Of a stretch of DNA of 64,000 nt, positions 9,401 through 12,400 are shown one piece after another (position 1 is the stretch's first letter; every line of letters starts with the position of its first letter). The notes beneath the pieces are model-generated. The model did not search any database. It was not told the origin of the DNA and worked only from the letters and a program-made list of their open reading frames with translations. Position numbers and translations under genes: made by a program. Origin of the DNA: Eledone cirrhosa (taxonomy: Eukaryota); contig CAXHJY010001240.1 in NCBI GenBank assembly GCA_964016885.1, positions 122,901 to 186,900 of the forward strand, read 5' to 3'.

Positions 9401-12400
9401 ATATATATATATATGTATGTGTATATATATATATATGTATGCATATATATATATATGTATGTATATATATATGTATGTATATATATATGTATGTATATAT
9501 ATATGTATGTATATATATATATGTATATATATATATACATATGTATATATATACATATGTATATATATATATATATATACATATGTATATATATATATAT
9601 ATATATACATATGTATATATATATATATACATATGTATATATATATGTATATATATATGTATATGTATACATGTATATATGTATATGTATATATATATAC
9701 ATGTATATATATGTATATGTATATATATATGTATATATATACATATATATATATATATATATGCGTATGTATATATATACATGTATATATATATATATAT
9801 ATATGCGTATGTATATATATACATGTATATATATATATATATATATATACATGTATATATATATATATATATATGTATATGTATATATATACATATGTAT
9901 ATATATATATATATACATATGTATGTATATATATATATATATATATATATATGTATATATATATATATATATATATATATATGTATATATATATATATGT
10001 ATATATATATATATGTATATGTATATATGTATATATGTATATATATATATATATGTATATATATATATATATGTATGTATATATATATATATATGTATGT
10101 ATATATATATATATATATGTGTATATATATATGTATATATATATATATGTGTATATGTATATGTATATATATATATGTATATATATATATATGTGTATAT
10201 ATATATGTATATATATATGTGTATATATATGTGTATATATATATGTATATATATATGTGTATATATATGTGTATATATATATGTATATATATATGTATAT
10301 ATATATGTGTATATATATGTGTATATATATATGTATATATATATGTGTATATATATATGTATATATATATGTGTATATATATATGTATATATATATGTAT
10401 ATATATATGTGTATATATATGTATATATATATGTGTATATATATATGTGTATATATATATGTATATATATATATGTGTATATATATATGTATATATATAT
10501 ATGTGTATATATATATGTATATATATATATGTGTATATATATATGTGTATATATATATGTATATATATATGTGTATATATATGTGTATATATATATGTGT
10601 ATATATATATGTGTATATATATATGTGTATATATATATGTGTATATATATATATGTATATATATGTGTATATATATATGTGTATATATATATGCATATAT
10701 ATATGTATATATATACATATATATATATGTATATATATATATGTATATATACATATATATATGTGTATATATATATATGGATATATATACATATATATAT
10801 GTGTATATATATATATATGTGTATATATATATATGTGTATATATATATATGTGTATATATATATATGTGTATATATATATATGTGTATATATATATATGT
10901 GTATATATATATATGTGTATATATATATATGTATATATGTATATATATATATGTATATATGTATATATGTATATATATACATATATATATGTATATATAT
11001 ACATATATATATGTATATATGTATATATATATACATATGTATATGTATATATATATACATATGTGTATATGTATATATATATACATATGTATATATGTAT
11101 ATGTATATATATACATATGTATATATATATATGTATATATATACATATGTATATATATATGTATATATATATACATATGTATATATATATGTATATATAT
11201 ACATATGTATATATATATATATGTATATATATACATATGTATATATATATATGTGTATATATATATATGTGTGTATATATATATATATATATACGTTATT
11301 CCGGGTTGAATCGGAGGTAACCACAGTAAGTAAGGTACTCAATACATAGCAGAGTATAACAGTTTTAATATAGATGAGATTCCTGATGATTTCAAATGAA
11401 TGAAACAGTTCTAGTCCTGTAGAATCTCATCTATATTAAAACTATATATATATATATATGTATATATATATATATATATATATATATATATATATATATA
11501 TATATATATATATATATATGTATATATATACATATGTATATATATATGTATATATATACATATGTATATATATATGTATATATATACATATGTATGTATA
11601 TATATATGTATATATATACATATGTATATATATACATATGTATATATATATATATATATGTATATATATACATATATATGTATATATATACATATGTATA
11701 TATATACATATGTATATATATATATATATATGTATATATATACATATATATGTATATATATACATATGTATATATATACATATGTATATATATACATATG
11801 TATATATATATGTATATATATATCATATGTATATATATATATATATATGTATATATATATTGTTATACTTTGGGAGGGTCATGTTGCCAATATATGTATA
11901 TATATATATATATGTATATATATATATATACATATGTATATATATATACATATGTATATATATATACATATGTATATATATACATATGTATATATATATA
12001 CATATGTATATATATATATATACATATGTATATATATATATACATATGTATATATATACAGATGTATATATATGTGTATATATATGTATATATATATGTA
12101 TATATGTATATATATATATATATATATATATGTATATATATATATATGTATGTATATATATATGTATATATATATGTATATATATATACATATGTATATA
12201 TATGTATGTATATCTGTATATATATGTATGTATATATATACACATATGTATATATATACATATATATATATATACATATGTATATATATATACATATGTA
12301 TATATATACATATGTATATATATACATATGTATATATATACATATGTATATATATATACATATGTATATATATACATATGTATATATATACATATGTATA

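Follow-up and report, generated by a model that had tools for sequence, protein, structure and literature searches.

A type-I hammerhead in two head-to-head pieces within an ACIN1 intron, likely the 3' end of a Penelope-like element inserted into a TA array

The analysed stretch of Eledone cirrhosa DNA (64,000 nucleotides, hereafter the window) contains, on the + strand of a 150-base island at 11294-11443 (copy 1), a complete type-I hammerhead motif in which all listed elements are found by inspection of the sequence. With good though not full confidence, the combined evidence points to an origin of the island, which is arranged in two head-to-head pieces, from the 3' end of a Penelope-like element (PLE) whose insertion into a TA array probably took place via reverse transcription primed from both target strands. 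The parts of copy 1 and the two further copies of the motif identified in the window are the following.

11294-11382, - strand: inverted piece of 89 nt, extending from base +1 behind the predicted cut as far as the TA array
11294..11360, - strand: one-sided tail of 67 nt, sequence downstream of the hammerhead in the sense of the element, ending at the TA array
11361..11382, - strand: the 22 nt that directly follow the predicted cut, repeated in inverted orientation as the exact reverse complement of 11422-11443, which acts as the 5' strand (5' arm) of stem I on the + strand
11383-11443, + strand: direct piece, composed of the core plus 22 nt behind the cut, without a tail
11383..11421, + strand: type-I hammerhead core (sequence, descriptor match and contig variants)
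11383-11389, + strand: CUGAUGA
11390 and 11401, + strand: U-U opposition at the base of stem II (U11390 versus U11401)
11391-11393 with 11398-11400, + strand: stem II, 3 bp, with a 4-nt loop at 11394-11397
11402-11406, + strand: GAAAC
11405-11408 with 11417-11420, + strand: stem III, 4 bp, with an 8-nt loop that includes CUAG at 11411-11414
11419-11421, + strand: GUA, with the predicted cut after 11421
11422..11443, + strand: 3' strand of stem I, where the direct piece stops in TA without a tail
53590..53737, + strand: copy 2, the same two-piece layout, 98% identical
54252..54312, - strand: copy 3, the direct piece only (core plus 22 nt)

The core sequences CUGANGA, GAAA and NUH are present in type-I order at 11383-11389, 11402-11405 and 11419-11421, so that the complete order given for 11294-11443 in the preliminary description is borne out element by element, as is its statement that the 5' arm of a 22-bp stem I is an inverted copy of the sequence behind the cut site: the two arms are perfect 22-bp reverse complements, and the pairing does not extend further outward. 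The three helices (22, 3 and 4 bp) can form, with the hammerhead fold at -28.8 kcal/mol compared to -30.1 kcal/mol for the MFE structure, that is, 1.3 kcal/mol above it. The high folding score of the 150-mer (z = -5.4, with none of 200 shuffles equally good) is due to stem I, as a 56-nt segment comprising the core and 8 bp of stem I does not stand out (z = -1.0, 32 of 200 shuffles). When the window was searched with a hammerhead descriptor requiring at least 6, 3 and 4 bp in stems I, II and III, respectively, two matches were obtained (copies 1 and 2) compared to none in 60 second-order Markov simulations of 45-kb non-TA sequence, and the looser form of the descriptor (3, 3 and 2 bp) yielded three matches against a simulated mean of 0.08. 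On the strength of these simulations and of the three copies, a chance origin of the motif was rejected. An Rfam search of the island returned nothing at gathering score; the sub-threshold match to Hammerhead_HH9 reaches 13.7 bits against a cut-off of 52. Rfam also gave matches of the miRNA-hairpin type, but the miRNA reading was rejected because these scores stem from the perfect arm of stem I.

The host gene of the insertion was delineated by comparison with cuttlefish ACIN1 (for exon 1, two matches among 18 candidates), and the array by Tandem Repeats Finder.

6156-6293, + strand: ACIN1 exon 1, encoding a SAP domain, 93% identical to cuttlefish ACIN1
6294..21224, + strand: ACIN1 intron 1, the host context of copy 1 (GT at 6294, AG at 21223-21224; tblastn with cuttlefish ACIN1)
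6874..14291, no strand: TA-rich microsatellite array holding copy 1 (Tandem Repeats Finder)
21225-21270, + strand: ACIN1 exon 2, with 15 of 15 residues identical to cuttlefish ACIN1
ending at 48071, + strand: later ACIN1 exon (tblastn with cuttlefish ACIN1)

Because all these exons are on the + strand, the hammerhead lies within intron 1 in the sense orientation, in agreement with the preliminary description, which had also correctly placed it in a TA satellite; this array is 7.4 kb long. Copy 1 probably has little, negligible effect on ACIN1. The gene (6156-48071, + strand) consists of tiny exons separated by very long introns, intron 1 being 14.9 kb long, and for residues ~61-74 of cuttlefish ACIN1 no exon match is found in the window. 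A 24-nt non-TA island (11864-11887) is present in the same array, 420 bp downstream of copy 1.

The most fitting description of the 150 bases is that of two 5'-truncated pieces of one family joined head to head. The preliminary description reported neither the further copies in the window nor the nature of 11294-11360, which is the minus-strand tail. The tail is identical in copy 2 and appears to be the natural downstream sequence of the element because 106 contigs of public run X1, belonging to a second subfamily, proceed from the tail through an arm to the reverse-strand core, and a contig of run X5 (record 17) also runs from the tail into the reverse-strand core, at 98% identity, folding back at 11386. 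The predicted cut site is located 22 and 89 nt from the two ends, which puts the hammerhead close to the 3' end, and the direct pieces stop at +22 in all three window copies. Head-to-head inverted 5'-truncated copies are found in copies 1 and 2, in X5 record 17 and in a sibling insertion described below, and the one-sided tail extends beyond the fixed end, although its 67 nt exceed the published 30-40 bp.

The last 3-6 nt of the inverted copy (11377-11382) also match the likely native 5' strand, so the junction between the two pieces is placed within this 3-6 nt microhomology; it is in register with the predicted cut site. Nearly the same junction is present in copies 1 and 2, and three of the eight displayed X1 pieces bridge it in the register of copy 1 under a 31-letter rule, with 7-16 differences, two more pieces being one letter short of that rule. 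Conversely, X1 depth across 11375-11379 is only ~8-17% of the depth at 11394. Among the 15 joints displayed (31 in total), 11 skip from the tail to 11377-11401; these have short sides (20-37 nt), with unknown letters between them in six of the 11, and some may reflect divergent subfamilies rather than junctions. Neither 3' product folds better than its shuffles (z = -0.44 and -0.15), and hence no conserved RT-binding hairpin is claimed. By eye, no ORF start survives after the core in the copy 1 sequence, and no target-site duplication is visible in (TA)n.

The island is one member of an abundant repeat family. Within the window, copy 2 matches the full length of copy 1 at 98% identity, at a distance of 42 kb; copy 2 lacks 2 nt of the 5' arm near the junction and carries one change in loop II, whereas copy 3, with TA on both sides and two loop II changes, has neither the tail nor the long stem I. 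Copy 2, located further downstream, is also in the sense orientation relative to ACIN1 and likely intronic; copy 3, in the same gene region, is antisense. All contigs of four of the six listed public runs (X1, X4, X5 and X6) were searched, and 10,393 of the 16.3 million contigs of X1 align to the 150-base island, including 2024 at 99% identity or more, 2938 at 95-99%, 3470 at 90-95% and 1961 under 90%. These contig counts show abundance and not copy number, and summed depth is likewise not taken as copy number. In X4, 385 contigs align; X5 and X6 contribute just 2 and 3 contigs, respectively, at low depth, from which no host range is inferred. A search for the core among metagenome contigs and viral contigs gave no loci.

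Among the contigs, nine substitutions occur at a frequency of at least 1%, none of them at the 15 core positions, which is not significant alone (p = 0.38). Three of the nine are in loop II, that is, three of its four positions vary, but the corresponding p = 0.0006 is overstated because the variants probably represent about two subfamily events. Contigs diverge from the island just before 11380 (237 contigs) and just behind 11424 (272 contigs), and therefore the part that is common to the subfamilies consists of the core plus 3 bp of stem I. Selection is likely to have kept the ribozyme in the master elements, judging from these sequence patterns. The association with (TA)n that had been proposed for the element is supported: at the tail end, TA runs bound the contigs just outside 11302-11309 in all four runs, and four of four window islands sit in TA arrays (TA fraction 0.29), although the latter are not independent evidence because three of the four share one array. 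One X6 contig has non-TA sequence behind 11439.

A related insertion is found in the TA array that also holds copies 2 and 3, lying between the two.

53972..54174, + strand: sibling insertion with the same layout as copies 1 and 2

This sibling contains a 61-bp perfect inverted repeat (53972-54098) with its junction at 54033-54037, and the 3' half of a hammerhead, with GAAAC at 54056, GUC at 54076-54078 and a near-palindromic stem III that is strongly self-complementary (duplex at -30.7 kcal/mol); CUGAUGA is absent from 53972-54174. The GUC is followed by a 20-nt arm and then by a one-sided 76-nt tail, so that the ends are at +20 and +96. The tails of the sibling and of copy 1 share 16 of 18 nt at a matching distance from the cut (+34-51 versus +37-54), with a local alignment score that is reached by 37 of 2000 shuffles. 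The segment 53590-54312 thus holds three hammerhead-related insertions within ~720 bp of one TA array, beside pieces of an RTE-like LINE; as a side reading, this array might act as an insertion hot spot.

This layout is the one reported for PLE insertions, in which an inverted 5'-truncated copy is accompanied by a tail on one side only (PMC8557442 and PMC3846280). For an Anolis PLE, PMC11167929 describes cutting and extension of both target strands, AT-rich targets, and a tail that spans the interval separating two internal RT start sites, both of them behind the hammerhead. By analogy, a PLE protein would nick both strands of (TA)n, one target end would prime a cDNA at a distal site (+89) and the other at a proximal site (+22), and the two cDNAs would then join through the 3-6 nt of microhomology supplied by stem I of the ribozyme. 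The 22-bp stem I would arise as a by-product of this joining and replace a native bulged stem I. The layout matching that of an inverted PLE copy with a tail, it is likely that the long stem I came about through the insertion and is not a feature of the family. The agreement with published PLE insertions, the variable junctions, the fixed +22 end and the lack of a long stem in copy 3 all argue for this scenario; the shortness of the contig ends, the lack of a link between a PLE ORF and the element, and the 67-nt tail, compared to 30-40 bp in published insertions, count against it. The composite may also spread as a unit, given that the junctions of copies 1 and 2 almost coincide and that three X1 pieces are in register with them. 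The observed structure could also result from self-primed fold-back (PMC3846280) if the core then flipped between the arms. Of the suggestion that the island is a short non-autonomous PLE derivative, the PLE origin is upheld by the architecture; a single 150-base unit, by contrast, finds little support, since the island looks like two head-to-head truncated ends and other copies have other junctions, and extreme truncation of an autonomous PLE would fit as well as a non-autonomous unit. PLEs are numerous in another cephalopod, O. vulgaris, with 190 families (6.83% of the genome), 31 of them recently active (PMC13282606).

There is little support for the proposal that stem I is extended or rebuilt by the inversion in a way that benefits the ribozyme. 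The loose ends of contigs before 11377, 11378 and 11380 show other upstream sequence, suggesting that the native stem I is short, ~3-6 bp, followed by unrelated upstream sequence, and that the inversion likely replaces the native loop-1 side. This native upstream sequence is known from consensus lines of the loose ends, with an agreement of 0.42-0.65, or from single contigs; by eye, in these low-agreement lines, it could pair further out around a bulge. The long stem I probably removes the native loop-1 bulge: stem I is a perfect 22-bp helix without a bulge, and no loop 1-loop 2 tertiary contact is apparent, although a contact between helices I and II is described as needed for efficient cleavage in vivo (PMC4209133). 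The weakness of stem II (3 bp) noted previously is real in that the G10.1-C11.1 pair closing this stem is absent, with U-U in its place in all three window copies. The axolotl HHR_Amex2, with U-U at the base of helix II, still shows 22% monomer cleavage in 1 h (PMC7229834), and because this ribozyme cleaves, the U-U opposition is not fatal and is compatible with slow cleavage. Copy 1 is predicted to cut slowly at best. The dimer cleavage mentioned in the preliminary description gains little support from copy 1: its stem III has 4 bp, compared to 1-2 bp in typical metazoan motifs, and pairs at 0.46 as a monomer, while the duplex (-12.8 kcal/mol versus -1.4 kcal/mol for the hairpin) is matched by 12.6% of 2000 loop shuffles, so that the loop is not significantly palindromic (p = 0.13). 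Dimer formation by copy 1 is possible in this folding model, and the argument for dimer cleavage is weak.

The register of the junction invites a tentative refinement of this scenario, less likely than not, namely that the inverted piece is a cDNA of the 3' cleavage product: the RT would have run off at the cut end, the last bases would have annealed to their stem-I complement on the other cDNA, and the junction would record cleavage in vivo. Indeed, position +1, immediately behind GUA, is exactly where the minus-strand piece starts, this register is common to copy 2 and the three diverged X1 pieces detected under the 31-letter rule, and the core is the conserved island between subfamilies. 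However, stem I provides the same microhomology without any cut, so this register is expected either way, and one junction cannot separate cleavage from plain stem-I microhomology. Moreover, junctions elsewhere exist (X5 record 17 at 11386, the sibling at 54033-54037 and the skip joints), the direct piece must derive from uncut RNA, and in Anolis the main substrate is uncut RNA and no RNA-seq reads ended at the cut site (PMC11167929). Slightly more doubtful is the composite proposal that the family represents abundant TA-targeted cephalopod PLE ends in which the junction forms preferentially at the cut site, one cDNA being made from cleaved RNA and annealing via stem I. Were this the case, the junctions would be a genome-wide fossil record of PLE hammerheads cutting their template in vivo, PLE hammerheads would help to join the two ends during integration, and the product of each event would be a complete ribozyme whose stem I is long, in this instance in the sense orientation inside ACIN1.

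It is unlikely that the whole 150-nt cassette is a short non-autonomous element moving as a unit, in which an inversion created the long stem I and its benefit for ribozyme folding led to its retention. The 98% identity of copies 1 and 2 over the whole unit at a distance of 42 kb, the diverged contigs that bridge tail and core in the orientation of copy 1, and the pairing probability of 0.94 at the base of stem I are all consistent with such a unit, but the drop of X1 depth at 11375-11379 to ~8-17% of that at 11394, the other junctions and orientations, and the lack of the arm in copy 3 are not. The gain in folding is also small: the competent fold makes up 1.6% of the ensemble with the long stem and 1.0% with 6 bp (0.3% in copy 2), shares that were computed without a positive control and do not represent a cleavage rate. 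Furthermore, the perfect arm provides no loop-1 bulge for the tertiary contact described in PMC4209133.

Still less probable is an origin from a non-LTR retrozyme, as a solo or permuted monomer spread via small circular RNA, notwithstanding the type-I, non-coding and highly abundant hammerhead, the two X1 joints (of 12 displayed) that return from the 3' end to 11377-11379 across 16-18 intervening letters, as in short tandem units, and the argument, in bioRxiv 10.64898/2026.07.22.740005, that retrozymes derive from PLE pLTRs. None of the three window copies is tandem, the ends are fixed at TA arrays rather than permuted, and the head-to-head inversion with a one-sided tail is a trait of PLE insertions. 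Finally, regulation of ACIN1 pre-mRNA by the host through this hammerhead, in the manner of HH9 and HH10, the conserved intronic hammerheads of amniotes, is highly improbable: copy 1 is in the sense orientation in intron 1, as is the likely intronic copy 2 downstream, but it is one of a very large number of copies, copy 3, also within this gene region, has the antisense orientation, the HH9 score is 13.7 bits, the predicted folding is weak, and the fact that copy 1 is nearly identical to family variants suggests that it was inserted recently.

Several other mobile element remnants are present in the window. Decayed RT-like frames with a YRDD motif are found at 29710-30969 (- strand) and 4494-4934 (+ strand), which we take to resemble PLE remnants, possibly of the Naiad type. 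The frame at 29710-30969 has an Atlas lead to RT clusters at 0.90-0.93; given that it has no Pfam match and no hammerhead nearby, it was not linked to the element. The 3' part of an RTE-like LINE and its downstream sequence occur twice, inverted and ~6 kb apart (50156-51545 on the - strand; 54427-54672 and 57842-58520 on the + strand), the second occurrence being broken by TA arrays. Also between TA arrays, there is a CR1/L2-like reverse transcriptase frame (58780-60420, + strand; Pfam RVT_1, E 1e-27). In addition, the window contains a piggyBac-like transposase fragment (24588-25361, + strand; Pfam DDE_Tnp_1_7) and arrays of a 48-bp repeat unit (32886-33445, 36750-36919 and 43943-44255).

The PLE reading of the island has implications beyond this locus. 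The role of the hammerhead in endonuclease-bearing PLEs is stated to be unclear (PMC8557442), and one reconstituted PLE inserted without needing cleavage (PMC11167929). Because the family comprises very many short copies in which the junction can be read and the 3' ends are fixed at two points, the question whether cut RNA serves as template becomes testable by genome statistics alone. The family also adds a natural U-U variant of stem II to the known hammerheads and shows that cephalopod TA arrays hide hammerhead-bearing insertions missed by Rfam. In the literature searched, mainly open-access papers and preprints, neither a cephalopod hammerhead family nor an inversion junction at a cut site is described.

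Among known systems, copy 1 has the architecture of a PLE 3' end and lacks, in the window, the tandem arrangement of retrozymes. Like the hammerheads in pseudo-LTRs of metazoan PLEs (Cervera and de la Pena 2014, PMC4209133), which mostly occur scattered through the genome as lone motifs in truncated PLEs, it is a type-I motif with a short native stem I; pairs of motifs on opposite strands and variants with a small palindromic helix III are reported there as well. Unlike those hammerheads, it has U-U in place of the highly conserved G10.1-C11.1, a stem II of 3 bp rather than 6-8, a 4-bp stem III whose loop has 8 nt, and a stem I of 22 bp resulting from the inversion. With the Anolis Poseidon element PAc and the PLE inverted-copy insertions (PMC8557442, PMC3846280 and PMC11167929), copy 1 shares the head-to-head inverted 5'-truncated copy, the tail on one side, two fixed ends downstream of the hammerhead and an AT-rich target, whereas the tail is longer (67 nt, or 76 in the sibling, compared to 30-40), the insertion is just 150 bp long and no ORF start follows the core. 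The non-LTR retrozymes (PMC7229834 and bioRxiv 10.64898/2026.07.22.740005) are similarly non-coding, abundant type-I hammerheads, but theirs are head-to-tail tandems with circular RNA, in contrast to the single, head-to-head copies in the window. Among PLE clades, a microsatellite bias is common to the Naiads, in the form of (TA)n, and, as discussed in PMC8557442, to Neptune; the same paper describes Naiads as devoid of canonical hammerheads and long inactive in cephalopods. Considering the combination of TA targeting with a hammerhead, Neptune would therefore seem to be a likelier partner clade than Naiad.
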